64,000 nucleotides of DNA from Bacteriovoracia bacterium. Lineage in GTDB: Bacteria; Bdellovibrionota; UBA1018; CAIPTA01. Positions 29,098 through 52,454 of the stretch are shown in pieces. The DNA is taken from contig JBFWVL010000001.1 in NCBI GenBank assembly GCA_050246755.1, forward strand, positions 320,001 through 384,000. Reading direction: 5' to 3'. The first letter of the stretch is position 1, and every line of letters begins with the position of its first letter. The notes under the pieces are model-generated. The model was not told the origin of the DNA and searched no databases. It worked only from the letters and a program-made list of their open reading frames with translations. Both the position numbers and the translations under genes were made by a program.

Positions 29098-29793
29098 ATG
29101 ATTACCATTCGTAAATCCAATGAACGCGGCCACGCCAACCACGGCTGGCTGGACTCCCACCACACCTTTTCCTTCGCGGATTACTACGATCCCCAGCATA
29201 TGGGCTATAGCGTGCTCCGCGTGATCAACGAGGATCATATCGCCGCCGGGCAAGGCTTCGGCACCCACGGCCACCGCGATATGGAAATCATCACCTACGT
29301 GATCGAAGGCTCGCTCAAGCACAAGGACAGCATGGGTAATTCTGAAGTGATCCGCCCCGGAGAAGTGCAGCGCATGAGCGCGGGCACCGGCGTGCAGCAT
29401 TCCGAGCATAGCGACCCCAGCGTGAGCACCCACCTGCTCCAAATCTGGATCCTGCCCGAGAAACTCGGCGTGGCACCGAGCTACGAGCAAAAGCAATTCG
29501 CCAACGATTTTTCCTGCAGCGATATGATTCTCGTGGCTTCCCGTTCGGGCCGCGCCAATTCAGTTACGCTAAACCAAGACGTGGACCTATACGTGGCCAA
29601 GGCCCAGGCCGAAGGCGAGAAACATTTGAAAACCTTCCCCCACCGCCACTTGTGGATTCAAGTGGTGAGCGGAGAGGTGCGCGCGGAAGGCGCCACTCTG
29701 GGAAAAGGCGACGGCGCGGCGATCACGGGCGTGGAGATGCTCGTGATCCAGTGGACGAAGGGTTCCGAGTTTCTCGTGTTTGATATGCCGTAA
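29098..29793 (+). CDS. pirin-family protein (YhhW-like)
   Basis: GWLDSHHTFSFA.YYDP, GFGTHGHRDMEI, MSAGTGVQHSE, LQIW. Confidence 0.95.
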   Translation: MITIRKSNERGHANHGWLDSHHTFSFADYYDPQHMGYSVLRVINEDHIAAGQGFGTHGHRDMEIITYVIEGSLKHKDSMGNSEVIRPGEVQRMSAGTGVQHSEHSDPSVSTHLLQIWILPEKLGVAPSYEQKQFANDFSCSDMILVASRSGRANSVTLNQDVDLYVAKAQAEGEKHLKTFPHRHLWIQVVSGEVRAEGATLGKGDGAAITGVEMLVIQWTKGSEFLVFDMP

Positions 29794-33505: not shown

Positions 33506-34276
33506 CTATTTAGCGAGAAACTCCACCTTACCCAATTGATCGAACGTGGCACTCACCGTATCGCCCGCACGAAAAGCCACGGCCGCGGTGGCGCCGCCCG
33601 CGAGCACGATGGATCCGGCCGGCAAAGATTCGCCCATGGCGCCCAGTAGCTTCACGAGCTCCAGCAGCGAAAGCAGGGGATTCCCCAGAATGGCGGCCGA
33701 AGACCCCTTTTGCGCGGCCGCTCCATTTTTTTCGAGCGTGATACCGATATTTTTTAGTTCGAGTTCCCCCGGTTTTTTCCTTACCGTACCGAGCACGAAG
33801 GCCGAGGAGGAGCAGTTGTCGGCCACCACGTCGGGCAGGGCGAAATCAAAATTCTCGAAACGAGAATCAATCACTTCGATCGCCCCGCATACGCTCTCGA
33901 TCGCCGCAATGGCTTCGGCTTCGGAAGGATTGCCATGCAGCTCTTTACCCATCACGAAGGCAATCTCGGGTTCGGCCTTAGGATGAATTCTTCTTCCGAG
34001 CGTGAGCGTCGCGCCGCTCGCTATTTGCATGCGGTCGGTGAGGAAGCCGTGGATAGGGCTATCAATTCCCATTTGCTCCATCTTGGGCTTGGAGGTCATT
34101 CCCATCTTGCGGCCAACGATCCGCGCGCCGCCTTTGAGGTGAAGGGCCATGAGCAAGCGCTGCACTTCGTAGCCCTGACCGAGCGAAAAACTCGGCTCTT
34201 CCACCGTAAACTTAATTACGGACTTTCCCGTTTGCTCCGCCGCGAACAATATTCCCGCGATTTCTTGCGCCTTCAT
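33506..34276 (-). CDS. dmpH: 4-oxalocrotonate (2-oxo-3-hexenedioate) decarboxylase
   Basis: FAH family; KMGMTSKPKMEQMG, IHPKAEPEIAF, EVIDSRF, DVVADNCSS. Confidence 0.85.
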   Translation of the reverse strand: MKAQEIAGILFAAEQTGKSVIKFTVEEPSFSLGQGYEVQRLLMALHLKGGARIVGRKMGMTSKPKMEQMGIDSPIHGFLTDRMQIASGATLTLGRRIHPKAEPEIAFVMGKELHGNPSEAEAIAAIESVCGAIEVIDSRFENFDFALPDVVADNCSSSAFVLGTVRKKPGELELKNIGITLEKNGAAAQKGSSAAILGNPLLSLLELVKLLGAMGESLPAGSIVLAGGATAAVAFRAGDTVSATFDQLGKVEFLAK

Positions 34277-34277
34277 T

Positions 34278-35057
34278 CTATTCTCCAAAAAAACAGTGCA
34301 CGTTTCCGAGACCAGCGATTTCCACGTCTACCCTATCGCCCGCCTTCACCGGCATCACCGGCCCAAAGGCGCCGGAAAGAATCACTTCACCGGCTTTCAG
34401 TGCCACCCCGAATTTTCCGAGCGCATTCGCAAGCCAGGCCACCGCCAGGCAAGGGTGATCGAGGCAAGCCGCGCCGGTGCCGGTGGAAAGAATTTCCCCG
34501 TTAATTTTCAGGCTCATCTTGGCGAGGGTTAAATCCAGGGAGGAAAGCGAATGCTTTTCCGTGCCCAGCACAAAGTGCGAAGAAGAGGCGTTGTCGGCGA
34601 TCGTGTCCTGGATCTTGATTTTCCAGTCGCGCACGCGGGAATCAATGATCTCGATCGAGGGAAGAATATAGTCCGTTGCGTGGATCACATCCTGCATCGT
34701 TATGCCGGGGCCTATCAAGTCGCTCTTGAGCACGAAGGCCACCTCGCCCTCCACCCGGGGCAAAAGGAGCTTGGCGCGGGAAAGGCTTCCGCCCGAGGAA
34801 ATCTTCATGTCGGAAGTGAGGTAGCCGAAATCGGGCTCTTCCACGCCCAATTGTTTCTGCACTGCCCTAGAAGTAAGGCCGATTTTCTTCCCCACGAGGG
34901 TCAGGCCTTCTTGCTCGAGGCGGCGCTTGAGGTTAATCTCGGACACGGAGTAGGCGTTGCCGATCGTGATTCCGGGAAACTGGGCGGTGAGCGGTTCCAC
35001 CGGCGAGGCCGAGAGGCGGGCCTGAAAAAGGGCGTCAGCTAAGGAAGTAAGATTCAT
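34278..35057 (-). CDS. mhpD: 2-oxopent-4-enoate (2-keto-4-pentenoate) hydratase
   Basis: GKKIGLTS.AVQKQLGV.EPDFG, EIIDSR, DTIADNAS, AVAWLAN. Confidence 0.9.
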   Translation of the reverse strand: MNLTSLADALFQARLSASPVEPLTAQFPGITIGNAYSVSEINLKRRLEQEGLTLVGKKIGLTSRAVQKQLGVEEPDFGYLTSDMKISSGGSLSRAKLLLPRVEGEVAFVLKSDLIGPGITMQDVIHATDYILPSIEIIDSRVRDWKIKIQDTIADNASSSHFVLGTEKHSLSSLDLTLAKMSLKINGEILSTGTGAACLDHPCLAVAWLANALGKFGVALKAGEVILSGAFGPVMPVKAGDRVDVEIAGLGNVHCFFGE

Positions 35058-35107
35058 CTTCCCCCACTCTAGTGTCAGGCCAGCGTGATTTCAAGAAGGG
35101 ATACTCG

Positions 35108-35977
35108 ATGTCGAAATACGACAACTTGGAGCTGAAAGAACTGAACTATAACTCCTACCTCAAGGTGCCCGAATTGCTCGGCCTCCAAAAAGAGCTTTCC
35201 GACCCCGCCCACCACGACGAAATGTTCTTCATCATCATCCACCAGGCCGCCGAGCTCTGGTTCAAGCAAATGCGCCACGAAACGGCTGGCCTCATCGAGG
35301 ATTTCCGCGCCAATTCCGTTTCCCGGGCCTTGAAAAAATTCCGTCGCCTCGTGGGCATTATGGATCTGATGGTGAAGCAGATCAATTTGCTAAACACCCT
35401 CACACCCGTGGAGTTCGCGGGCTTCCGCGATAACCTCCGCCCCGCTTCCGGCTTCCAGTCCATCCAGTTCCGCGTGATCGAGTTCGCCTATGGCATCCGC
35501 GAAGCTTTTTTCCTGGAATTTTTCGCCAAAGAAAAATCCATGCAGAGCCAGCTGCAAGACCTACTCAAAGAACCGAGCGTGCACGATGAGTTCGTGCGCC
35601 TGCTAAGCCGCTCCGGCTTCAAGATTCCGGAGTCCCTACTGAATCGCGACGTGAGCCTGCCGTGGACCGAATCTCCCGAGCTCATCGCCACGATCAAGAC
35701 GATCTACGAGAATCCCCAGGAAAATTACCATTGGGTTCTGCTCTTCGAGACCATGCTCGACTTCGACGAAAAATTCGCCGTCTGGCGCTCCGTGCATATG
35801 CTCATGGTGGCGCGCACGATCGGCATGAAGGCCGGCACCGGCGGCAGCTCGGGCCACGCCTTCCTCGCAGGCCGCGCTGGCCTGAGATTCTTCCCCGAGC
35901 TCTGGAGCGTGCGCACGGAAGTGGGCGGCGGATACGGGAATGCCGGGGCGGCCACTCCCGGGAAATGCCCGGTTTAA
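35108..35977 (+). CDS. kynA: tryptophan 2,3-dioxygenase
   Basis: Y.SYL, HDEMFFIIIHQAAELWFKQ, FR..L.PASGFQS.QFR, GTGGSSG. Confidence 0.96.
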   Translation: MSKYDNLELKELNYNSYLKVPELLGLQKELSDPAHHDEMFFIIIHQAAELWFKQMRHETAGLIEDFRANSVSRALKKFRRLVGIMDLMVKQINLLNTLTPVEFAGFRDNLRPASGFQSIQFRVIEFAYGIREAFFLEFFAKEKSMQSQLQDLLKEPSVHDEFVRLLSRSGFKIPESLLNRDVSLPWTESPELIATIKTIYENPQENYHWVLLFETMLDFDEKFAVWRSVHMLMVARTIGMKAGTGGSSGHAFLAGRAGLRFFPELWSVRTEVGGGYGNAGAATPGKCPV

Positions 35978-35981
35978 TAGC

Positions 35982-37166
35982 ATGCGCTTCGACGTTTTCT
36001 TCTCCATCTGCCAAACTCCCGTGAACGGCTATACGCCCTCGGAACGCGTGATGTTCGAGAATTTTTTCTCCCAGGCCGAGCTCGCCGATCAACTCGGCGT
36101 GGGCACCGCCTGGGTGGCCGAAACCCACCTCTCCTGCCAGACCCAAAAAGAAAATCCCGGCGCGGTGGTGCCCCACTTCGAGGGCGAGATCGGCCTCAAT
36201 ACCGACGTGCTCCAGGTGGCGCACCGCTTATTCGCGCGCACGAAAAAAATCCATATCGGCTCCGCCATCCGCAATATCCAGTGCAATGGCGGCCCTATCG
36301 CCCACGCCGAAGCGATCCGCATGTTTCTCTCGCTCCACGCGCTCAATCCCGGCGAGAAACGCCTTCTCGATATCGGCTTCGCTTCCGGCCGCTTTCCTTT
36401 TTCCAATACGCCCTACGGCATCCGCCCCCGCAATGAACTGGAGAAAGCCGCCTGGCCCGTGCTCAAGGGAAAGATCTTCCAGGAAGCCACCGAAATTTTC
36501 CTGCGTCTCCTCAAGGGAGAGAAGCTCGCCTCGAAGGATATTTCACCTAAAATCCTCGAGCGCAAAAATTTCCGCAGTGAGGAGGAATGGGAAAAAATCG
36601 CCAAGCTCGCCGGCGGTGCCGACAAAATCGAAGTCCCCGCTTTCTGGAATTTCGATAAAGTGGGCGTGATTCCCTTCGAAGCCCCCATGGATCTGCTGAA
36701 GCTCACCATCGGTTGCCACGATCTCGAAACCCAGATCTTCGCCAATAAATTCCTGCCCTGCGGAGTATTCAACCTCTCGATCACCCCCGCTCCCCAGATC
36801 GAAGCCACGCACCAGGCGATGCAAAAAAGCTTTCACCCCGCGGGTGGCCGTTGGACCCGCGCCCATATGCCCCGCACGGTGCTCGTATTCCTGGATAAAA
36901 ATCGCGAGAAGGCCCGTGCACGTGCCCAGGGCGCGATGGAGAATTACTGGAAAGCCATCGAGGGAACCCTTGATCCCGAGAAGATTCGCAATGCCGTGGA
37001 CAATGCCCTCGTGGGCGACGCGGCCGAAATCAAGGCGGAGCTGGAAACGCGCTTCCACCGCGACGATCGCCTCATGCTCTGGTTCGATTTCAATAACCAC
37101 GACAACGAGGAAGTGCGCTCTTCCATGCGGGAATTCATGGAAAAAGTGGCGCCGAGCCTACAGTAA
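35982..37166 (+). CDS. luciferase-like (LLM-class) flavin-dependent monooxygenase
   Basis: MRFDVF, QAELADQLG..TAWVAETH, TKKIHIGSAI, RLLDIGFASG, C-terminal M..F.EKVAP; starts 4 bp after kynA. Confidence 0.85.
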   Translation: MRFDVFFSICQTPVNGYTPSERVMFENFFSQAELADQLGVGTAWVAETHLSCQTQKENPGAVVPHFEGEIGLNTDVLQVAHRLFARTKKIHIGSAIRNIQCNGGPIAHAEAIRMFLSLHALNPGEKRLLDIGFASGRFPFSNTPYGIRPRNELEKAAWPVLKGKIFQEATEIFLRLLKGEKLASKDISPKILERKNFRSEEEWEKIAKLAGGADKIEVPAFWNFDKVGVIPFEAPMDLLKLTIGCHDLETQIFANKFLPCGVFNLSITPAPQIEATHQAMQKSFHPAGGRWTRAHMPRTVLVFLDKNREKARARAQGAMENYWKAIEGTLDPEKIRNAVDNALVGDAAEIKAELETRFHRDDRLMLWFDFNNHDNEEVRSSMREFMEKVAPSLQ

Positions 37167-37456: not shown

Positions 37457-38155
37457 ATGACGAAAAATTGGATCTACTCGCTAAGTCTAGTTCTAGCTCT
37501 CACCGCAAACCTTGCTCTAGCCGGCGGCGCTGCCGTATCGGACCGCCTCAAATGCAATAAGGCGACCGAACTTCCCGTCAACGCAAGCGTAGACCGCGTG
37601 GTAGACGGCGACACCGTGATCATCCGCGTCCCCACCGGCACCTACTCGGTGCGCATGATGGGCATCGATACCCCCGAAACTCACTTCATGGGCAAGAGCC
37701 AGGGCGAATGGGGCGATAAAGCCGCCGAACTCCTCTCCGACCTACTCCCCGTAGGCACCAAGGTTCGCCTCGAGTACACCGCGGAATCCTGCGATGCGCA
37801 CGGGCGCCTGCTCGCCCACGTATTCAAAGGCAAGCTGCACACGAATGCCGAAATGGTGAAGCAAGGCCTCGCCGCCAACTATTGCGTAGCCCCCAGCTTC
37901 GAGTATTGCCGCGAAATCGGAAACCACGTGGCCAACGCCATTAAATACCGCCTGGGTATGTTCGCCGACTCCAACGCCGAGCTTCCCTATGATTTCCGCC
38001 GCCGCATTGGTGGCAACGAGCAGCGCTCTTTCGTGGGCAATCTCTCCACGAAAGAAGTTCTTACTCCCGGCCACCAAGATGACGTTCCGGTTGCCGAACG
38101 CGTATTCTTCTATCGCCAGAGCGACGTGAAGGCCCCCTACTTCATCGCGAAATAA
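37457..38155 (+). CDS. secreted thermonuclease (SNase family)
   Basis: Signal peptide; VVDGDT, VRMMGIDTPE, DAHGRLLA, N.EMV..GLA. Confidence 0.92.
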   Translation: MTKNWIYSLSLVLALTANLALAGGAAVSDRLKCNKATELPVNASVDRVVDGDTVIIRVPTGTYSVRMMGIDTPETHFMGKSQGEWGDKAAELLSDLLPVGTKVRLEYTAESCDAHGRLLAHVFKGKLHTNAEMVKQGLAANYCVAPSFEYCREIGNHVANAIKYRLGMFADSNAELPYDFRRRIGGNEQRSFVGNLSTKEVLTPGHQDDVPVAERVFFYRQSDVKAPYFIAK

Positions 38156-38172
38156 ATCCTTGGGTTTCTTAC

Positions 38173-38201
38173 GCCTCTGCCTTCACGGGCAGGGGCTTTT
38201 T
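38173..38201 (+). terminator. intrinsic terminator
   Basis: GCCTCTGCC-TTCACG-GGCAGGGGC followed by TTTTT. Confidence 0.8.
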
Positions 38202-38247: not shown

Positions 38248-39279
38248 ATGAGCGACCACGCTTACTCGCAAAACCAATGGGTGCCTCTCGTGGACTACCG
38301 TCGCAATGGAGTGGCTGAATGCACCATCCACGGCTCCATTGCCTGGGTTTCGGGAACCAAGCTCGTGCACGCCTTTGGCGGGGAAGTGCTCTGCTATGGC
38401 CGCTCGATGATGAAGCCCTATATGGTGAAGGTTTTCGCCAAAGAGCTCGAGGATATGAGCTGGGAACAGAAAGCCATCTCGGTGGCCTCCCATAACGGCG
38501 ACACCGAACATATCCGCGTAGTCAGCTCCGTACTTTCCGAAAGCGAGCTCGGCCTCGTGCAAACCCCGCTCGCGCTGCCGCTGATGCAATTCGGCCAGCA
38601 GCGCCGCCGCCCGCGCCGCCTCTATCATTCCTGCTCCGGCGAACACGCCGCCATCCTCCGTGGCTGCCGCGTGAAGGGCTGGAGCCGCGTTGGCTATGTG
38701 TGGCCTCACCACGAATTTTTCCTCGCCTACCTCGCCCAGGTTCGCACCGTGCTCGGCGCCGATTGGGAACCCAAAGTGATCGCCAAAGACGGTTGCGGAT
38801 TACCCACGATTTCCATGACTACCGTGGAGATGGCGCGACTTATGGCCGATCTCGTAACGAAGAGAAACGACGATTGGGTTTGGGACGCGATGGTGAAGCA
38901 CCCGGATCTCGTGGGCGGCTTCAACCGCCTCGATTCCACGATCATGAAATCCTGCGAAGGCCGCGTGATTGCCAAAGAAGGCGCCGACGGCTTGCTCGGG
39001 CTCGCAATCGAGCACCCGGACTATCCTGATGGCCTCGGGGTAGTGATCAAGATCGCCCACGGCTGGGACATGCGCGCCACCTGGTACGTAGCCCGCTACG
39101 TGCTCGGCGTTTTGGGTTTTGATTTCCGCAATCCCTACCCGCTCGAGCGGCAAAAAGCTTTTCTGGTAGAGGATTGCATCCCGCCGGCGCTAAGGCCCAA
39201 GATGGATTCGATTCAGCCCTGGGACGACTGGGATCCGGATAGAGACCGCTGGAATTTTGATTACCGGGAGTTCACTTGA
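38248..39279 (+). CDS. asparaginase II (Rhizobium AnsA-type) family amidohydrolase, variant
   Basis: RSMMKP, ASHNG, SCSGEH (canonical NCSGKH), DGCGLP, AKEGADG. Confidence 0.85.
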   Translation: MSDHAYSQNQWVPLVDYRRNGVAECTIHGSIAWVSGTKLVHAFGGEVLCYGRSMMKPYMVKVFAKELEDMSWEQKAISVASHNGDTEHIRVVSSVLSESELGLVQTPLALPLMQFGQQRRRPRRLYHSCSGEHAAILRGCRVKGWSRVGYVWPHHEFFLAYLAQVRTVLGADWEPKVIAKDGCGLPTISMTTVEMARLMADLVTKRNDDWVWDAMVKHPDLVGGFNRLDSTIMKSCEGRVIAKEGADGLLGLAIEHPDYPDGLGVVIKIAHGWDMRATWYVARYVLGVLGFDFRNPYPLERQKAFLVEDCIPPALRPKMDSIQPWDDWDPDRDRWNFDYREFT

Positions 39280-40718
39280 AATTAGCTAACTATATCGACG
39301 GCCACGAGCAGGCCCCGCTTTCGGGAAAGTATTTGCCCAACTACGCGCCCGCTACCGGCGAGATCTATTCCGAGATCCCCGATTCCAGCGCGGCAGACGT
39401 AGACCTCGCCGTGAAGGCCGCACAGAAAATTTTCCCTTGGTGGAGCCAACGCACCCCCGAGCAAAGATCCCAGGTTTTACTCTCGATTGCCGATCGAATG
39501 GAAAAATCCGTCGACGATCTCGTGAACGCCGAGAGCCGCGACCAGGGAAAACCCGTGCACCTCGCGCGCGAAATCGAAATCCCCCGCGCCATCCAAAATT
39601 TCCGCTACTTCGCCACCAAGATTTTGCACACCGAAGAAACCGCGAGGCCCTCGCAGGCCCTGAGCTCCCTCTCCTACACCTACCGCATGCCCGTGGGCGT
39701 GGCCGGATTGATCTCGCCATGGAATCTCCCGCTCTATTTGCTCACCTGGAAAATCGCGCCGGCCATCGCCGCCGGGAACACGGTGGTTTGCAAGCCCTCC
39801 GAGCTCACGCCGATGACGGCCTACCTCATGGGCGAAATCTTCAACGAGGCGGGCGTTCCCCACGGAGTGGTGAACATGGTATTCGGCCTCGGCGTCACCG
39901 CGGGCGCCGCACTCGCCGCTCACCCCGATGTGCCACTCATTTCTTTTACCGGCGGTACCGCCACCGGCCGCAAGATCCTCGAGGCCTCGATTCCGCGTTT
40001 CAAGAAAACCAGCCTCGAGCTCGGCGGAAAAAATGCGGCGCTGGTTTTTGCCGACTGCGATCTCGCCGAAGCTGTGATCACGAGCGTGCGCTCATCCTTC
40101 CAGAACCAAGGCGAAATCTGCCTCTGCAATTCCCGCATCCTGGTGGAAGAAGGCATCTACGAGAAATTCGTGGAAAAATTCGCGCGCACGGCGAGCCTCA
40201 TCCGCGTGGGCGATCCCACCCTGAAAGAAACCCAGATGGGCCCGCTCGTGAGCAAGGAGCATAAAGAAAAAGTTCTCTCCTATATCAAGCTCGCCACCGA
40301 AGAAGGCGGCACTATTCTAGGCGGCGGCACCGTCCCCCACCTCGAAGCGCCCTTCGATCAAGGCTATTTCGTAAATCCCACGATCATCACGGGCCTCGGC
40401 CCCAACTGCCGTGTGAACCAGGAAGAGATTTTTGGCCCCGTGGCCAGTATCATTCCCTTCAAAACTGAGGAGGAAGCGATTGCGATCGCGAACGGCGTGG
40501 AATACGGACTATCCGCCTCCGTTTGGACCCGCGATATTTCTCGCGCCCACCGCGTAGCCCAGGCCCTGCACGTGGGCACCACCTGGGTAAACTCCTGGAT
40601 GGTCCGCGATCTCGGCATGCCTTTCGGCGGCATGAAGCATTCCGGCCTCGGCCGCGAAGGCGGAGATCACTCGCTGAATTTTTTCAGCGAAACGAAAACC
40701 ATCAGCGTGAAGATATGA
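39276..40718 (+). CDS. amnC: 2-aminomuconic 6-semialdehyde dehydrogenase (ALDH8A1/HMSADH-like)
   Basis: ISPWNLP, KPSE, FTGGT, LELGGKN, NQGEICLC, EEIFGP, RDL..PFGG; TTG start overlapping the upstream stop. Confidence 0.85.
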   Translation: MKLANYIDGHEQAPLSGKYLPNYAPATGEIYSEIPDSSAADVDLAVKAAQKIFPWWSQRTPEQRSQVLLSIADRMEKSVDDLVNAESRDQGKPVHLAREIEIPRAIQNFRYFATKILHTEETARPSQALSSLSYTYRMPVGVAGLISPWNLPLYLLTWKIAPAIAAGNTVVCKPSELTPMTAYLMGEIFNEAGVPHGVVNMVFGLGVTAGAALAAHPDVPLISFTGGTATGRKILEASIPRFKKTSLELGGKNAALVFADCDLAEAVITSVRSSFQNQGEICLCNSRILVEEGIYEKFVEKFARTASLIRVGDPTLKETQMGPLVSKEHKEKVLSYIKLATEEGGTILGGGTVPHLEAPFDQGYFVNPTIITGLGPNCRVNQEEIFGPVASIIPFKTEEEAIAIANGVEYGLSASVWTRDISRAHRVAQALHVGTTWVNSWMVRDLGMPFGGMKHSGLGREGGDHSLNFFSETKTISVKI

Positions 40719-41233
40719 AGCTCTTCCTGCTTTTCTTAATTCCTCTTTTTGCCTTCGCCAAGCCCGCGGCACGCAAATCCAAGGCGCCGCCCAAACGCGT
40801 AGCCACGAAGATCACTTCGGGCAAACAGGTTTGCGATATGGTGAAAAAATTCACCACCGCCGGGTTTCCCGCCCAGACCAATATCGATTTCGCCGTGGGG
40901 AAAAAGTTCGTGGCCGAAGGAAAGCTCGGCGCCATCGACAAAAATATCGGCACCTTCCATTTAGCCAATCTCTACCTGCGCGCCATCGCCAAGGGCGAGG
41001 AGGGCCTCACCTATAAAGAGGGCTGCCTAAAAATCAATTTCCCCGACCTCGATAAGGATGGGATTAAGGACCTCGAGCTCTCCGTGACGATGGAGCGACT
41101 CGACCCCAAAGCGAATCCTAAAGTGGTGAGCACCGTGAACTACGAACGCACGTTCATCTACCATCCGGAACAGAAAATCTACGAGCCCATGACCGGCTCC
41201 CCTCACCCCTTCGTGGAGCTCGTGATCAAGTGA
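40715..41233 (+). CDS. secreted hypothetical protein
   Basis: ATGA overlap with the dehydrogenase; signal peptide MKLFLLFLIPLFAFA; DLDKDG motif. Confidence 0.7.
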   Translation: MKLFLLFLIPLFAFAKPAARKSKAPPKRVATKITSGKQVCDMVKKFTTAGFPAQTNIDFAVGKKFVAEGKLGAIDKNIGTFHLANLYLRAIAKGEEGLTYKEGCLKINFPDLDKDGIKDLELSVTMERLDPKANPKVVSTVNYERTFIYHPEQKIYEPMTGSPHPFVELVIK

Positions 41234-41610
41234 AACAGGTGATCCTGATCCGCCGCGATCTCAATATGCGCCGGGGAAAAGAAATCGCGCAGGGGTCACA
41301 CGCCTCGATGGGATTTCTGATCGAGCAATTGCGGGCGCAGATGCCTTCTTCGGAGGCTTCGGTCACTCTCGACGCGGCCACGCAGGAATGGATTCAGTTC
41401 GGCATGGGAAAGATTTGCCTGCAGGTTACGAGCGAAGCGGATTTGCTTAGCTTCCACGCGAAGGCGAAGGCCGCCGGAGTGTATAGTTTTTTGGTGAGGG
41501 ATAGTGGCCGCACGGAATTTCACGGCGAACCTACCTATACCGCCTGCGCGATCGGGCCCGATACGGCCGAGAGAATCGATGCAATCACGGGTGAGCTGAA
41601 CTTGTATTGA
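41230..41610 (+). CDS. pth2: peptidyl-tRNA hydrolase, PTH2 family
   Basis: KQVILIRRDLNMRRGKEIAQGSHAS, DSGRTE, T.CAIGP, ID.ITG.L.L. Confidence 0.9.
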   Translation: MKQVILIRRDLNMRRGKEIAQGSHASMGFLIEQLRAQMPSSEASVTLDAATQEWIQFGMGKICLQVTSEADLLSFHAKAKAAGVYSFLVRDSGRTEFHGEPTYTACAIGPDTAERIDAITGELNLY

Positions 41611-41704
41611 AGCGCGGTAAATCTCGCGCATGGAAAATTTTCTTCTGCGAACTCACTTACTTAGTATTTAACGCAAGGCTTCTACAGCGCTGCAAGTAAT
41701 CTAG

Positions 41705-43913
<2,209 letters not shown>

Positions 43914-43917
<4 letters not shown>

Positions 43918-44549
43918 AGATTTGGGACATCAGCCCGGTGATTTCCGAGAAGACGGCCGTATTTCCCGGCGACGTGCCTTTTTCCCGCGAAGTTTCGATG
44001 GACACGAAAAAAGGCCACCACCTCACCCTCTCGGCCATTCGTTCCACGCTGCATATCGGCGCGCACGCCGACGCCGGCAATCATTATCATAAAGAGGGAA
44101 AAGGCGTGGAGGCGCGGCCCCTCGAATCCTACCTGGGCGACTGTGAAGTGATCGCCGTAAAGCTTCCCCGTGGTGCCCGTATCGGAATCGAGCATTTGAA
44201 CGGAAGAATCCCGCTCGCCCCCCGCGTGCTCTTCAAAACAAATTCTTTTCCCGATCCCGATCAATGGAACAATGATTTCAATTCTCTCTCGCCCGAGCTG
44301 ATCGAGTTCCTCGCCGACCGCGGCGCTATGCTCGTGGGTATCGACACTCCGAGCGTAGATCCCGTGGATTCCAAAGCCCTCGAAAGCCACCAGGCGCTGC
44401 ACCGCAGAAATCTCGCCGTGCTCGAGGGAATCACGCTGGAACAGGTAACGGAAGGCGTGTACACCCTGGTCGCTTTGCCGCTGCGAATGAAAGACGCTGA
44501 CGCTTCGCCGGTTCGTGCTATCCTTATAAACAAAGAAACGTTGTTGTGA
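43914..44549 (+). CDS. kynB: kynurenine formamidase (cyclase family)
   Basis: WDISP...VFPGD, HIGAHADA..H, GIDTPSVD, LEG, DASPVRA. Confidence 0.93.
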
Positions 44550-46532: not shown

Positions 46533-46669
46533 GCGGGCGCCCCTCGGGCATGACACGTAAATAATTGAATTTATTAACTTTATTTTACCTTATCGGACCT
46601 GCCCCACCTAGCCCGCCCTCGACGCGGTGCTCGCTTCCTTCCTACACTATTTCGCCTATCGTTATCGGC

Positions 46670-48217
46670 ATGTCGAAAACCCAACAGCAGGCCTTCGCGG
46701 CCCTTGAAGCCAAACTTGCGCAGAGCGAATTTCCCGCCGGCAAAGAACGCGTGGAAAAACAGCATAAAGACGGAAAGCTTTCCGCCCGGGAACGCATCGA
46801 GCTGCTCCTCGACAAAAATTCTTTTCAGGAATTGGACCGCTTCGTTACCCACCGGTGCACGAATTTCGAGCTCGAAAAAAATACTCCGCTCGGCGACGGG
46901 GTGGTTACCGGATTCGGCAAGATCGATGGCCGTATCGTGTACGTTTATTCCCAGGATTTTTCGGTATTCGGCGGCTCGCTTTCGGGCGCGCATGCGGCCA
47001 AGATCTGCAAGCTCATGGACCTCGCCCTGAAAAACGGAGCCCCGGTGATCGGACTCAACGATTCGGGCGGCGCGCGGATTCAAGAAGGCGTGGAAGCCCT
47101 CGGCGGATATGCCGAGATTTTCTGGCGTAATGTGCAGGCATCCGGCGTGGTGCCGCAGATTTCCGTGGTGATGGGCCCCTGCGCGGGCGGCGCGGTCTAT
47201 TCTCCGGCGATCACAGATTTTATTTATATGGTGGAACGCACGAGCTTCATGTTCGTGACCGGCCCCGACGTGATCAAGACCGTGACCCACGAAGAAGTGA
47301 CGAAAGAAACCCTCGGCGGCGCGCACACCCACTCCGAAACCAGCGGCGTATCGCACTTCGTGGCCCCCGACGACGCCACCGCCCTCCGCCAGGTGAGAAA
47401 GCTCATTTCCTATTTACCCCTGAACAACGGCGATTTGCCGCCCGCGATCCCGAACGCGGAACCGAGCGACCGCGACACGAACCGCATCCTCGCCGCCCTC
47501 CCCGATACTTCGCAAAAACCCTACGACGTGAAGACGTTTATCGACGATATCGTGGACGAAGGGAGCTTCTACGAAGTGCACGCGGCCTACGCCCGCAATA
47601 TCGTGGTAGGCTTTGCCCGCATCAACGGCCGCCCGCTCGGCGTGGTGGCCAACCAGCCCATGCACTTGGCTGGCTGCCTAAATATCGATGCTTCGCGGAA
47701 GGCCGCCCGTTTCGTCCGCTTCTGCGACTCCTTCAATATACCCCTCGTTTCCCTCGTGGATGTTCCCGGCTTTCTCCCCGGCACCGACCAGGAATACGGT
47801 GGAATCATTACCCACGGCGCGAAGCTCCTCTACGCCTACGCCGAAGCCACCGTGCCAAAAATCACGGTGATCACGCGCAAGGCCTACGGTGGCGCCTACG
47901 ACGTGATGGCCTCCAAGCATATCCGCGCCGATTTTAATTTCTCTTTCCCCAATGCCGAGATCGCGGTGATGGGCCCCGAAGGCGCGATCTCCATCCTCCA
48001 CCGCGAGAAGATCGCCAAGGATCCCGCCTCGGCGCCGAGATTGGTGGAAGAATACCGCGATACCTTCGCCAACCCCTACCGCGCCGCCGGCCTCGGGTAC
48101 CTCGACGAAGTGATTCATCCCAAGGATACGCGCCGGAAAATCGCCGCCGCGCTGGAAGCTACCCGGGGAAAACGCGAAGCGCGGCCGGTTCGCAAACACG
48201 GAAATATTCCACTGTGA
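46670..48217 (+). CDS. pccB: propionyl-CoA carboxylase carboxyltransferase subunit
   Basis: [56 protein letters not shown]. Confidence 0.93.
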
Positions 48218-49722
48218 GTACAACCGTGAAGATGCCGTTCAAAAAAATTCTGATCGCGAACCGGGGCGAGATCGCCATCCGCGTGATCCGCGCCGCCAAA
48301 GAACTGGGATTGAAAACGGTGGCCGTTTATTCCGATGCCGACCGCGATTCGCCCCACGTGCTCCTCGCCCACGAGGCCGTGCCTATCGGTGCAAGCGAAG
48401 CGAAGCAAAGTTATCTCGTGCCCGAAAAAATTCTCGCCGCCGCCGCGGCCACTAAGGCCGATGCCCTGCATCCCGGATTCGGATTTCTCTCCGAAAACGC
48501 CGATTTCGCCCGCGCTTGCGCCAAGGCCGGAATTAAATTCATCGGCCCCAACCCCGACGCGATCGACCTCATGGGCGACAAGCTCCGCGCCCGCGCCGCG
48601 ATGAAGGCCGCCGGCGTGCCCATCGTGCCCGGCAGCGACGGCGCGATCGAAACCCTGGCCGAGGCGAAAAAAATCGCCAAGACGATCGGCTTCCCCGTGA
48701 TCCTCAAAGCCGCGGCCGGCGGGGGCGGCAAGGGCATGCGCGTGGCCAACTCCGACAAAGAGCTCGAGAATTTTTTCGAATCCGTGCGCAGCGAGGCCCT
48801 CAATTATTTCAACGACGGCTCGGTATTCCTCGAGCGCTACGCCAAGGATCCCCACCATATCGAAGTACAGATCATCGCCGACGAGCACGGCAACGTGGCT
48901 CACCTCTTCGAGCGCGAATGCTCCGTGCAGCGCCGCCACCAAAAAGTGATCGAGGAAGCGCCCTCTCCGTTCCTCGTGGGGCACGACGATATCCGCGAGA
49001 AATTATTTGCCGTGGCCGTTCAGGGTGCCCAGCGCATCGGCTATACCAATGCCGGCACCATGGAATTCGTGATGGACGGCGACCGGAACTTTTATTTCCT
49101 CGAGATGAATACGCGCATCCAAGTGGAGCATCCCGTAACGGAGATGATCACCGGCATTGACCTCGTAAAAGAACAGATCCTGGTGGCCGCGGGAAATAAG
49201 CTTTCCTTCGACCCCAAAGAGCTGAAGCTCAACGGCGCGGCCATCGAGTGCCGGCTCTACGCCGAAAATCCCTTCACTTTCCTCCCTTCGCCAGGCCCCG
49301 TGAAAGAGCTCGTGCTCCCGGGAGGCCCCTTCGTGCGCGTAGACGCGGCGATGCACGCCGGGCAAACCATTCCCCTCGAATACGATCCGATGATTGCGAA
49401 ACTTTGCGCCTGGGGCCGCACCCGCGGGGAATCCGTGAGCCGCATGGCCCGCGTGCTCGGCGAAACGGGCGTGGCCGGCTGCTTAACCAACCTAGCTTTC
49501 CTTCGCCGCGTGATGGAAAATAAAATTTTCCGGAGCGGAATCTATACTACCGGCTTTATCGCCCAAGAAACCGAGCAGCTCGCGAATCCGAAAGAGCTTC
49601 CGCCCGGAATCGAATCGGAAGCCGAGCTCAGGGAACTATTGGCCTTGCTCGCGAGCACCGAAGAAAAAGTTCCCGCGCAACCCGAAGCTTCGGCCTGGTG
49701 GAGGATGACTCATGTCCGATAA
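48214..49722 (+). CDS. accC: biotin carboxylase subunit
   Basis: [52 protein letters not shown]. Confidence 0.95.
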
Positions 49723-50227
49723 AGCCTATACTCTTCCCGGCGGACAGCAGTTCGAGCTGAAGAACGGTCCGGGCGGTGAATATCTCGTAAAGCGCGAAGG
49801 CAGCGAGGAGACCGCTTCCCGCATCTCCGCCGACTCTCACGTAATCGATCACGAAACCAAACGTCTCTACCTCGGCTCCGCCAAAGCCCGGCAGCTCTTC
49901 TGGGTATACGCCGTTCGTAATAAACGCATTCTCTCCTGGCCGGGCGGCTCGATGGAGATCGACGCCGTGGATCTCTCGGAAGGCGCCGCCTCCGCCGGCG
50001 GCACGATCAAGCCGCTGCGCCTCACCATGCCGGGAAAAGTGCTCAGCATCAAAGTGAAGGAAGGCGATACCGTGGAGGCTGGCCAGGGTCTCGTGGTGGT
50101 AGAGGCCATGAAAATGGAAAATCTTTTGCTTGCGCCCGCCGCCGCGAAAGTGGCGAAAGTACACGTGCAAACGGGCGACCGCCTCGAATCCGGCACCACC
50201 CTCATCACCTTCGAGGCCCTTTCATGA
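49712..50227 (+). CDS. biotin carboxyl carrier protein
   Basis: MPGKV and the EAMKMEN biotinylation motif. Confidence 0.93.
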   Translation: MSDKAYTLPGGQQFELKNGPGGEYLVKREGSEETASRISADSHVIDHETKRLYLGSAKARQLFWVYAVRNKRILSWPGGSMEIDAVDLSEGAASAGGTIKPLRLTMPGKVLSIKVKEGDTVEAGQGLVVVEAMKMENLLLAPAAAKVAKVHVQTGDRLESGTTLITFEALS

Positions 50228-50892
50228 TTCGCTTGCTCGCCGCCCTCTTGCTGGCGTTCTCGCTCCTTTCGGCCAAGGCCGTAACCTATAAAGCGTATGT
50301 ACTGATGCCGGTAGACGAGGCCGCGAAGGAAAAATCGTTCCTGGATTTCCGCACCAAGCTCCTGAAGGCCATCGAAGCCAAAGACGCGGCCTACCTTTCT
50401 TCGATCCTCGCGAAAAATATCGCCTTCAGCTTCGGCGGGGAAGGCGATGGTGATGGGCCAGCCGGCTTCCGCCGCATGTGGAATCTCAACAAGCACCCGG
50501 AAAGAAGCAAGGTTTGGGCGGAACTAAAAGCCGTCGTAGCCCGCGGCGGAAAATTCAATGAAGACCTCACTTCCTTCGACGCCCCTTACGTGTCCGCGGC
50601 TTGGCCCAGCGCCTACGATTCCTTCGACTACTCCGCCGTGGTGGAGAAAGACGCAATCGTGCGCGAACGGGCCCGGCTGGACGCGCCCGTTCTGCAAAAA
50701 GTTTCTTATGAGATCCTGCGCGTTACCAGCGACTGGTCCAATAAACCCAATGCCTGGAGCACCGTGATTCTTCCCAACGGAAAAAAAGGGCATATCCAGA
50801 ATCGCTTCCTCCAGTCTCCGGTGGGCTACCGCGCCCGTTTCGAAAAAGTGGGCAAGGATTGGAAAATGGCCACATTCATTGCGGGAGACTGA
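50224..50892 (+). CDS. secreted protein with an SH3-like C-terminal domain
   Basis: Signal peptide; VRE......APV...W..V....GKKG.I, SPVGYRA.F.K....W. Confidence 0.7.
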
Positions 50893-52454
50893 TGAAGGAC
50901 CTCTCGAAATCCAATAATCGCACGCCTTCCGGCCTCGACCTCCGTACTTTCTACGGCGAACCTCCTCCAGGAGAGTTTCCCTTCACCCGCGGCGTGCACA
51001 AAGACATGTACCGTGGCCGCCTGTGGACCATGCGCCAGTACGCGGGATTCGGCACCGCCGAAGAGAGCAACAAGCGCTACCGTTACCTTCTCTCGAAGGG
51101 TACCACCGGCCTCAGCGTGGCCTTCGATCTTCCCACCCAGATGGGCTTCGACTCCGATCACCCCATGGCCATAGGAGAAGTGGGCCGCGTGGGCGTGGCC
51201 ATCGATTCCATCGCCGATATGCGCACCCTCTTCCGCGGCATCGATCTGGCGCGCGTGACCACCTCGATGACGATCAACTCCACCGCCTCTATCCTGCTAG
51301 CGCTCTATATCGCGGTGGCCGAAGAGCAAGGCGCCGACCTCAGCAAAATTTCCGGCACCATCCAGAATGATCTCCTCAAGGAATATATCGCGCGCGGCAC
51401 TTATATTTTCCCCCCCAAAGCCTCACTCCGGATCATCACCGATATTTTCGACTACTGCCGCAAGCAGGTGCCCAAATGGAATCCCATTTCGATCTCGGGC
51501 TACCATATCCGCGAAGCCGGCTCCACCGCCGCCCAGGAAATCGCTTTTACGCTGGCCAATGGATTTACCTACGTAGACGCAGCGCTGGCCGCCGGCCTCA
51601 CCATCGACGAATTCGCGCCCCGGCTCAGTTTCTTCTTCAACGCTCACAACCATCTCTTCGAAGAGGTGGCCAAGTTCCGCATCGCTCGGAAAATCTGGGC
51701 TGAAACGCTCCGCGAGACCTACGGCGCCCGTGATCCTAATTCGCTTAAATTAAGGTTCCACGCCCAAACCGCGGGCTCCATGCTCACCGCGCAGCAGCCC
51801 CGCAATAACCTTATTCGCGTTACGGTGCAGGCCATGGCGGCCGTGCTCGGCGGCGCGCAGAGCTTGCACACCAACGGCTACGACGAAGCCCTCTCCCTCC
51901 CCACCGAAGAGAGCGCCTCGCTCGCCCTGCGCACCCAGCAGATCCTCGCCTTCGAATCCGGAGCCGCCGACGTGGCCGATCCTTTAGGCGGCTCTTACTT
52001 TGTGGAGGAGCTCGGGCGCGAGCTCGAAGAGAAGGCGCGCTGGTACCTAAAAGAAATTCATACCCGCGGCGGCATGATCGCCTGCATCGAGGCAGGCTAC
52101 GTGCAGAGGGAAATCCAGGAAGCGGCCTATAAAACGCAATTGGCCACCGACCAGGCCGAGCAAGTGCAGGTGGGCGTGAATTCCTTCCAGGCCGACGAGC
52201 AGTCCGAGACGGATCTCCTGAAAATCGACCGCTCCTTGGAAGCCAAGCAGATCAAAAAAACCAAGAAATTTAAAAAGGACCGAGACCAAAAAAAGGTTCA
52301 CGAGGCTCTGGCACGATTGCAAACCGCGGCTAAGGGAGCAGAAAACCTCATGCCTTTTATCCTGGCGGCCGTAAAGAACGAGGCCTCTCTCGGCGAAGTC
52401 AGCGACTCCCTCCGATCGGTATTCGGCGCTCACCGCGAGATATTGACGGTTTGA
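50892..52454 (+). CDS. methylmalonyl-CoA mutase, substrate-binding (large) subunit without a B12-binding domain
   Basis: [57 protein letters not shown]; no DxHxxG domain. Confidence 0.93.

Follow-up and report, generated by a model that had tools for sequence, protein, structure and literature searches.

A divergent luciferase-like oxygenase gene that most likely opens an undescribed route of tryptophan breakdown in a Bacteriovoracia bacterium

How does a bacterium dispose of kynurenine when its genome encodes the first two enzymes of the kynurenine pathway and no detectable kynureninase? The question is raised by a 64,000-nucleotide stretch of DNA from Bacteriovoracia bacterium (GTDB lineage Bacteria; Bdellovibrionota; UBA1018; CAIPTA01; GenBank assembly GCA_050246755.1; contig JBFWVL010000001.1, positions 320,001 to 384,000 of the forward strand), which is called here the window at its full length. 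In it, a gene for a divergent luciferase-like flavin oxygenase (luciferase-like monooxygenase [LLM]; positions 35982 to 37166, plus strand; 394 amino acids), recognized by Pfam, AlphaFold, and Foldseek, follows kynA, the gene for tryptophan 2,3-dioxygenase (TDO). On the basis of gene context and genome comparisons, the LLM gene most likely starts an undescribed route of tryptophan breakdown in which kynurenine would be split without kynureninase. The strongest clues are a conserved Asparaginase_II homologue, the Amn ring-cleavage genes, and the absence of kynureninase from the genome, none of which the first-pass annotation had drawn on. We consider it probable that the LLM is a type II Baeyer-Villiger oxygenase that depends on reduced flavin mononucleotide (FMNH2) and acts on kynurenine or N-formylkynurenine, the product then being hydrolyzed to aspartate and 2-aminophenol. 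No description of a kynurenine Baeyer-Villiger monooxygenase (BVMO), or of a route from tryptophan to 2-aminophenol, was found in the literature searched, which lay largely outside the subscription journals.

The gene cluster and the oxygenase

Profile scans, which included 64 open reading frame (ORF) translations from the window scanned against Pfam, placed within 11 kb kynA, the LLM gene, a gene for an Asparaginase_II homologue, a divergent decarboxylase/hydratase pair, and genes resembling those for AmnC, AmnB, AmnA::RidA, and KynB. Homologues of AmnB, AmnA, AmnC, and AmnD are encoded together (39276 to 43917) and match solved enzymes of the 2-aminophenol pathway at the orthologue level. 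The AmnB homologue (41738 to 42646, plus strand; PDB 3vsg_B; E = 1e-123; 415 bits over 293 residues) corresponds to the LigB-type beta subunit of 2-aminophenol 1,6-dioxygenase. The homologue of the AmnA alpha subunit and a RidA-type 2-aminomuconate deaminase domain form a single fusion protein (42643 to 43917, plus strand; Pfam LigB and Ribonuc_L-PSP; residues 2 to 268 against PDB 7txy_A, E = 2.7e-57; residues 296 to 422 against 6izh, E = 5.2e-23). Upstream of them lie a homologue of 2-aminomuconate 6-semialdehyde dehydrogenase (AmnC-like; 39276 to 40718, plus strand; PDB 4npi; E = 7e-137) and the Asparaginase_II-family (i.e., class 3 asparaginase-like) serine hydrolase (38248 to 39279, plus strand; Pfam E = 4.8e-49; PDB 8cly, E = 1.3e-15), for which NCBIfam has no model. 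The kynurenine end of the cluster consists of kynA (35072 to 35977, plus strand; Pfam Trp_dioxygenase, E = 1.7e-52; TIGR03036, 274 bits, below the cutoff of 390.7), for which a GTG at 35072 and an ATG 36 nt downstream are both possible starts, and kynB, encoding arylformamidase (kynurenine formamidase; 43914 to 44549, plus strand; Pfam Cyclase; TIGR03035, E = 3.4e-61, 206.8 bits with a cutoff of 223). On the minus strand, upstream of kynA, are genes resembling those for 2-oxopent-4-enoate hydratase of the lower meta-cleavage pathway (34278 to 35057; TIGR03220, E = 1.1e-96, below cutoff) and 4-oxalocrotonate (2-oxo-3-hexenedioate) decarboxylase (33506 to 34288; TIGR03218, E = 1.4e-72, below cutoff). 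The cluster therefore combines the two opening steps of the kynurenine pathway with a complete 2-aminophenol ring-cleavage pathway; it contains no known link from kynurenine to 2-aminophenol.

Neither kynureninase nor 3-hydroxyanthranilate dioxygenase (3-HAO) was found in the own genome, which is 95.7% complete. The 3-HAO search is valid, since the same model matches the genomes of 40 relatives. Thus, kynA and kynB are present, kynureninase is missing, and the canonical set of kynurenine pathway genes is incomplete.

The LLM gene is a stop-free frame that, as the first-pass annotation had read it, begins 4 nt past kynA: the kynA stop codon TAA (35975 to 35977) is followed by tagc and then by the ATG at 35982. 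Another in-frame ATG, at 35940, would give a 408-amino-acid ORF and was adopted in one database gene call (P0002); position 35982 is the start position in all 39 aligned homologues. The translation contains AETH followed by LSCQTQKENPGAVVPHFEGEIGLN (residues 44 to 73 read WVAETHLSCQTQKENPGAVVPHFEGEIGLN), and the insertion that the annotation had reported after AETH is real, because the stretch from AETH to GEIGL aligns to a 15-residue gap in the solved LLM 8k74. Across 24 family members, with identities down to 35%, conservation is complete or no lower than 90% at residues H49, S51, Q55, K56, P64, G68, E69, N73, and D75; the 15-residue insertion is a signature of the whole family and no peculiarity of one gene.

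The only Pfam match of the protein, to Bac_luciferase (PF00296), passes the curated cutoff (32.4 versus 27.9 bits) and covers residues 1 to 181 only. No NCBIfam model matched, and a profile of the LLM family retrieved only luciferase-like chains from the PDB, with marginal scores (E = 6e-4 or worse). Its AlphaFold model (40 sequences; pLDDT, 90.7; pTM, 0.90) shows the (beta/alpha)8 barrel of the LLM type. All 30 of the Foldseek matches listed are LLM or F420-dependent LLM-fold enzymes (best match, 7bip; E = 2.5e-15), and they include bacterial luciferases and the 3,6-diketocamphane monooxygenase 4uwm (E = 2e-12). By its predicted fold and the marginal profile match, the protein is assigned to the luciferase-like monooxygenase superfamily. 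It has no FAD_binding_3 or Rossmann-type FAD domain, the hallmark of class A kynurenine 3-monooxygenase (KMO); its fold is a TIM barrel. The motifs G-S-A and G-G-P-x-x-x-A-E and residue R127 are conserved in the family and align with motifs of solved LLMs, where we take them to be flavin contacts. We propose that the LLM is the oxygenase component of a two-component, putatively FMNH2-dependent monooxygenase.

The family forms a compact group without close kin: of 1.84 billion representative clusters, only 296 match at E ≤ 0.001, and many among the 150 listed of these matches are short and partial. At 90% clustering there are 3,245 relatives, the best 120 of which are all at least 64% identical. 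In the ESM Atlas (P0001), the nearest feature-based clusters include LLM clusters labeled mostly as archaeal (Methanobacteriota and Thermoplasmatota; scores, 0.97), so that the family may reach into the Archaea; we regard this as a lead, not as evidence.

Several further genes lie in and around the cluster. Between the LLM gene and the asparaginase homologue, the plus strand encodes a secreted staphylococcal-nuclease homologue, followed by the strongest terminator-like hairpin of the region (38173 to 38196; gene and hairpin together, 37457 to 38196). Only 3 of the 80 related loci have the nuclease homologue in this position, and it seems to have been inserted into the operon. A scan for promoters and terminators gave nothing decisive for the LLM gene. 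The amn genes are split by two small, unrelated genes between the dehydrogenase and AmnB (40715 to 41610), encoding a 172-amino-acid protein with a signal-like N terminus and no family match and a PTH2 peptidyl-tRNA hydrolase. Downstream of the cluster (46565 to 52454) are genes for a propionyl-CoA carboxylase-like carboxyltransferase, a biotin carboxylase, and methylmalonyl-CoA mutase, and a pirin/quercetinase-like cupin gene (29098 to 29793) lies a few kilobases upstream.

Distribution of the oxygenase and its partners

We searched 201 genomes of the phylum, including the own genome, with six queries each and compared the resulting sets. The LLM was found in 31 genomes (14 at 52 to 100% identity, here tier 1, and 17 at 37 to 42%), all of which encode TDO (127 of the 201 genomes). 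The asparaginase homologue (38 genomes) is present in 30 of the 31, the exception being a 73%-complete genome, and its orthologues at ≥52% identity occur in exactly the 14 genomes with high-identity LLMs. All 23 genomes with AmnB fall inside the LLM set. Kynureninase (45 genomes) and 3-HAO (40 genomes, all of them among those 45) are encoded in none of the 31. About 6.9 genomes sharing LLM and kynureninase were expected and none was observed (hypergeometric P = 2e-4 by genome and 2e-3 by genus), although these P values make the case look stronger than it is, because related genomes are not independent. Both types occur within single families (in f15, 13 LLM genomes and 14 kynureninase genomes of 32). 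Outside the phylum, four of five LLM genomes, including the complete genome of Sulfidibacter corallicola, lack kynureninase.

A scan of one genome per species (236 relatives) left 80 loci from Bdellovibrionota, Acidobacteriota (i.e., Thermoanaerobaculia, Sulfidibacter, and Acanthopleuribacter), a Myxococcota metagenome-assembled genome (MAG), and an Oligoflexus MAG, which were searched by tblastn with the window proteins (E ≤ 1e-10; at least half of the query aligned). The neighbors of the LLM gene were the aminomuconate-semialdehyde dehydrogenase (65 loci), the Asparaginase_II homologue (52 loci), AmnB (46 loci), AmnA/RidA (45 loci, 5 of them being cross-matches to AmnB at contig ends), KynB (11 loci), TDO (10 loci), and the decarboxylase/hydratase pair (7 loci); these counts are lower bounds, because contig ends cut many of the loci. 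An AmnB-AmnA-Asparaginase_II cluster was present elsewhere in all five genomes tested whose LLM locus has neither AmnB nor the asparaginase homologue. The first-pass annotation had named close homologues lying mostly outside tryptophan clusters as a finding that would count against it; the neighborhood and genome searches did not bear that out. RidA is a separate gene in three loci (L014, L035, and L096), unlike the single AmnA::RidA frame of the window.

In 48 of the 80 loci (L003 to L079; e.g., L020:9189-10004), a short-chain dehydrogenase/reductase (SDR) gene of the enoyl-reductase type (best Pfam match, adh_short_C2) abuts or overlaps the LLM start. It alternates with the decarboxylase/hydratase pair (no pair in the 48 SDR loci and no SDR in the 7 pair loci), and four of five SDR-type genomes have no hydratase or decarboxylase homologue anywhere. 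The alternation points to a role in the lower pathway; the SDR may be an alternative enzyme of that pathway, catalyzing a reduction towards 2-oxoadipate, or a flavin reductase. As the missing flavin reductase of the window LLM it was set aside, given the alternation and the lack of an SDR orthologue in the own genome.

The linkage persists among more distant family members. Those of the 37 to 42% tier have the asparaginase homologue as a fusion with a KynB (Cyclase) domain, mostly encoded next to the LLM gene. The order of loci L096 and L098 is AmnB-AmnA-RidA-aldehyde dehydrogenase-hydratase-decarboxylase-LLM-Asparaginase_II::KynB, with TDO nearby, and three genomes of one genus (L095, L101, and L102) have only TDO, Asparaginase_II::KynB, and LLM together. 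No LigB-family gene was detected in four genomes of this three-gene genus (95 to 97% complete) or in one 99%-complete single-contig genome, and these five genomes have TDO, LLM, and the Asparaginase_II homologue (KynB-fused in the loci read). Since such genomes keep the module, it makes sense alone (e.g., yielding aspartate). The same three genes are consecutive, with overlapping stops and starts, in Gordonia sp. VNK21 (reached via P0144, a 35%-identical member), whose LLM is 33% identical to that of the window; the triplet thus recurs across 33 to 41% LLM identity, in a Bdellovibrionota genus without a LigB dioxygenase and in Gordonia. Besides the triplet, the Gordonia cluster (L112:1-12938), which has transposases on its flanks, encodes a second LLM, an alpha/beta hydrolase, an AMP-binding (adenylating) enzyme, a pyridoxal phosphate enzyme, DUF1611 and enolase-superfamily proteins, an acyl-CoA-dehydrogenase-like (ACAD-like) protein, and an MFS transporter. 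No AmnBA gene lies within 8 kb of the triplet, which, in this biosynthetic-looking cluster, may be a cassette forming 2-aminophenol for a natural product.

The hydrolase itself can be compared with ReAV, a class 3 asparaginase in which, according to PMC12292245, an Arg holds the substrate alpha-carboxylate and catalysis involves Ser48-Lys51 and Ser80-Lys263 tandems. In an alignment, the window hydrolase retains R-S-x-x-K, S, and K, equivalent to ReAV Arg47, Ser48-Lys51, and Ser80-Lys263, which fits a beta-aspartyl substrate. The ReAV zinc ligands Cys135/Lys138/Cys189 correspond to Cys/Glu/Cys in the window hydrolase and to Ser/His/Asp in six other tier-1 orthologues aligned (L085 to L089 and L100). 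We speculate that altered zinc ligands would suit a bulkier leaving group.

Fusions of Asparaginase_II and KynB (L095:7582-9117, L096:10134-11732, L097:14906-16525, L099:8214-9815, and L103 to L107) occur in two Bdellovibrionota families, in LLM-type and kynureninase/3-HAO-type genomes alike, and in both genome types the catalytic and zinc residues are preserved; unlike these fusions, the kynB of the window is a separate, distant gene. Judged by domain sequence, the order of the fusion (i.e., Asparaginase_II and then KynB) would fit hydrolysis followed by deformylation.

Proposed route and competing explanations

For kynurenine to supply a 2-aminophenol dioxygenase, its acyl side chain must be exchanged for oxygen at the ring carbon. 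We propose a Baeyer-Villiger oxidation because aryl migration puts oxygen exactly on that carbon. In the proposed mechanism, the C4a-peroxide of the flavin would attack the side-chain carbonyl of the aryl ketone (L-kynurenine or N-formylkynurenine, which these data do not distinguish), and migration of the electron-rich aminophenyl group to oxygen would yield the 2-amino(or formamido)phenyl ester of the aspartate beta-carboxyl. A free ortho-amine would let a beta-aspartyl aminophenyl ester rearrange to N4-(2-hydroxyphenyl)asparagine. Both compounds would be asparagine analogues, and the Asparaginase_II homologue would hydrolyze this asparagine-like product to L-aspartate and 2-aminophenol. AmnBA would then open the ring to give 2-aminomuconate semialdehyde, to be processed onward by the dehydrogenase, RidA deaminase, decarboxylase, and hydratase, so that LLM, hydrolase, and AmnBA would together stand in for KMO, kynureninase, 3-HAO, and ACMSD. 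Kynurenine shares its skeleton with asparagine, an aryl group standing in place of the amide NH2. LLM-fold type II BVMOs with nucleophilic flavin peroxide chemistry exist (PMC8706424). Of the activities named in the first-pass annotation, which placed the LLM on a kynurenine pathway intermediate and favored a kynurenine BVMO, both the general claim and the favored option are the ones that the comparative evidence supports best, the chemistry being that predicted above. The comparisons establish the fold, the gene linkage, and the complementary phyletic distribution; flavin dependence, the substrate of the LLM, the Baeyer-Villiger reaction, and the substrate of the hydrolase are inferred from them.

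Several observations weigh against this proposal. The clearest anomaly, and the main point that it leaves without explanation, is that Asparaginase_II::KynB fusions occur without LLM in seven kynureninase/3-HAO genomes, with the catalytic and zinc residues all intact; in L099 and L106, the fusion directly follows 3-HAO, ACMSD, and kynureninase. An eighth LLM-less genome (G011) has the asparaginase homologue and lacks kynureninase, and the statement on intact residues is limited to the other seven. The idea that the asparaginase domain of these fusions is a decayed relic was rejected, as all those residues are intact; this implies a function of the hydrolase domain, present or past, that does not depend on LLM. 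TDO and KynB are seldom direct neighbors of the LLM gene (10 and 11 of the 80 loci, respectively). One LLM genome outside the phylum, an Oligoflexus MAG, also encodes kynureninase. In one clade of the family (P0124; 42% identical; Silvanigrellaceae and an unclassified MAG; L114:8001-9215 and L115:3593-4807), AQHH replaces AE(T/S)H, several signature residues are missing, and neither of the two loci has tryptophan pathway neighbors, with trypsin-like peptidase genes nearby instead. The Pfam match is weak and confined to the N terminus, and phmmer found nothing at E ≤ 1 among solved PDB chains; with that search empty and the profile matches marginal, the functional subclass cannot be read from the LLM sequence. 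The 64 window ORF translations scanned contain no Pfam match to flavin reductase families, in agreement with the earlier reading of the window, and PF01613 has no match in the whole own genome. The search elsewhere in the genome that the annotation had recommended yielded one FMN_red gene and three nitroreductase-family genes outside the window. No DmpG-type aldolase scored above the cutoff in the own genome.

The alternative that survives best, though we judge it unlikely, is that the LLM alone performs an oxidative ipso-substitution (deacylation) of kynurenine, hydroxylating the side-chain-bearing ring carbon so that 2-aminophenol and aspartate are released directly, while the hydrolase acts elsewhere, tied to KynB or TDO. 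It draws on the same gene-context evidence as the Baeyer-Villiger proposal and would account for the intact fusions in LLM-less kynureninase genomes, which therefore raise the odds that the LLM completes the cleavage alone. It sits poorly with the retention of the hydrolase in 30 of the 31 LLM genomes, mostly adjacent, and with the conservation of the TDO/Asparaginase_II/LLM triplet out to Gordonia. LLM peroxyflavins are, moreover, usually nucleophiles on carbonyls, which would give an ester requiring hydrolysis.

Distinctly unlikely, in our estimate, is a non-homologous kynurenine 3-hydroxylase, an option of the first-pass annotation that lives on in modified form. AmnBA would cleave 3-hydroxykynurenine, itself an o-aminophenol, and the Asparaginase_II homologue would strip the beta-aspartyl group from the ring-opened product by C-C hydrolysis to give aspartate and 2-aminomuconate semialdehyde. 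Every gene of the cluster would be used, and the tight AmnB-AmnA-Asparaginase_II linkage would fit, as would the pattern in which the LLM and the set of kynureninase, 3-HAO, and, implicitly, ACMSD exclude each other. The product of a 3-hydroxylase must first be ring-opened, however, so that three-gene modules free of ring cleavage are senseless under this explanation. The five genomes with TDO, LLM, and the Asparaginase_II homologue and no LigB-family gene, as well as the Gordonia triplet without AmnBA within 8 kb, therefore disfavor it. Furthermore, the match of AmnB (415 bits over 293 residues) is to enzymes whose substrate is plain 2-aminophenol, and aromatic hydroxylation is unusual for LLMs.

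Very unlikely, we think, is an LLM with no role in tryptophan breakdown, supplying or processing another substrate of the Amn pathway or acting as a reductase, with its place beside kynA incidental. The rarity of adjacent TDO genes (10 of 80 loci), the family clade without pathway neighbors, and the putative status of its flavin use would agree with it. It is at odds with the presence of TDO in all 31 LLM genomes and of kynureninase and 3-HAO in none, and with the TDO/Asparaginase_II(::KynB)/LLM triplets that lack Amn genes; the module is also tied to the kynurenine pathway because its partner hydrolase is fused to KynB. Finally, the decarboxylative hydroxylation of anthranilate to 2-aminophenol, also listed in the first-pass annotation, would feed AmnBA too, but it is scarcely credible and was rejected, since it needs a kynureninase to supply anthranilate, none is found in the own genome or in the 31 LLM genomes of the phylum sample, and the asparaginase homologue would be left without a role.

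Kynurenine has three textbook fates, via kynureninase, KMO, and an aminotransferase. If the Baeyer-Villiger proposal is true, cleavage to aspartate and 2-aminophenol would be a new branch and would account for tryptophan use by many predatory and soil bacteria that have TDO and lack kynureninase. It would also be the first physiological role of a class 3 asparaginase-like enzyme beyond asparagine hydrolysis, would add an amino acid substrate to the small set of LLM-fold BVMOs, and would make 2-aminophenol, from which phenoxazinones and benzoxazoles are built, accessible by simple enzymatic means. We lean slightly towards a wide occurrence, with the route operating in at least the Bdellovibrionota, Acidobacteriota, and Myxococcota and with the TDO/hydrolase/LLM cassette also working alone to form aspartate and 2-aminophenol, including in an actinomycete cluster.

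Comparison with known systems

The canonical kynurenine pathway (KMO, kynureninase, 3-HAO, and ACMSD) would share with the LLM route both its start (TDO and KynB) and its end (aminomuconate semialdehyde dehydrogenase, RidA deaminase, decarboxylase, and hydratase). Its loci in related genomes (L099 and L103 to L107) lie in the same genomic neighborhoods. Within the 201 genomes the two routes exclude each other, and they would differ in the fate of the side chain, which becomes alanine and CO2 in the canonical pathway and would become aspartate here. The amn/cnb clusters of nitrobenzene and chloronitrobenzene degraders (3vsg, 8ihg, 7txy, and 6izh) are matched at the orthologue level in AmnB, AmnA, AmnC, and AmnD. 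In those clusters, 2-aminophenol comes from nitroarene reduction, whereas the window cluster has instead kynA, kynB, LLM, and the asparaginase homologue, and its AmnA is fused to the deaminase.

Among solved structures, the best match to the LLM is RslO1 of Streptomyces bottropensis (7bip; TM scores, 0.68/0.80; E = 2.5e-15; identity, 19%), presumably a polyketide-tailoring enzyme from an unrelated context. The 2,5- and 3,6-diketocamphane monooxygenases of Pseudomonas putida (4uwm and 5aec) share the LLM TIM-barrel fold (Foldseek E = 2e-12). According to PMC8706424, they are FMNH2-dependent, convert a ketone to an ester, and draw reduced flavin from a separate reductase whose gene is not adjacent to theirs. 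The likeness is structural only, with no sequence similarity by phmmer: the LLM family has AE(T/S)H and the conserved 15-residue insertion, and its proposed substrate is an amino-acid aryl ketone rather than a bicyclic terpene ketone. Because the LLM is not a sequence relative of these enzymes, we suggest that it probably works like a type II BVMO and do not claim membership. The class 3 L-asparaginases ReAV and ReAIV of Rhizobium etli have PF06089, Arg47, Ser48-Lys51, and Ser80-Lys263 in common with the window hydrolase, in which the zinc ligands are altered and the proposed leaving group is aminophenol, not ammonia.

A parallel in catabolic logic comes from Pseudomonas fluorescens ACB, where 4-hydroxyacetophenone monooxygenase (HAPMO) and an aryl-ester hydrolase convert an aryl ketone to an aryl ester by Baeyer-Villiger oxidation and then to a phenol and an acid, followed by ring cleavage. 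HAPMO, a single-component class B enzyme of the FAD/NADPH type, is unrelated in fold to the LLM. The proposed route would follow the same logic, with aspartate as the predicted acid and an asparaginase-like protein as the putative hydrolase.

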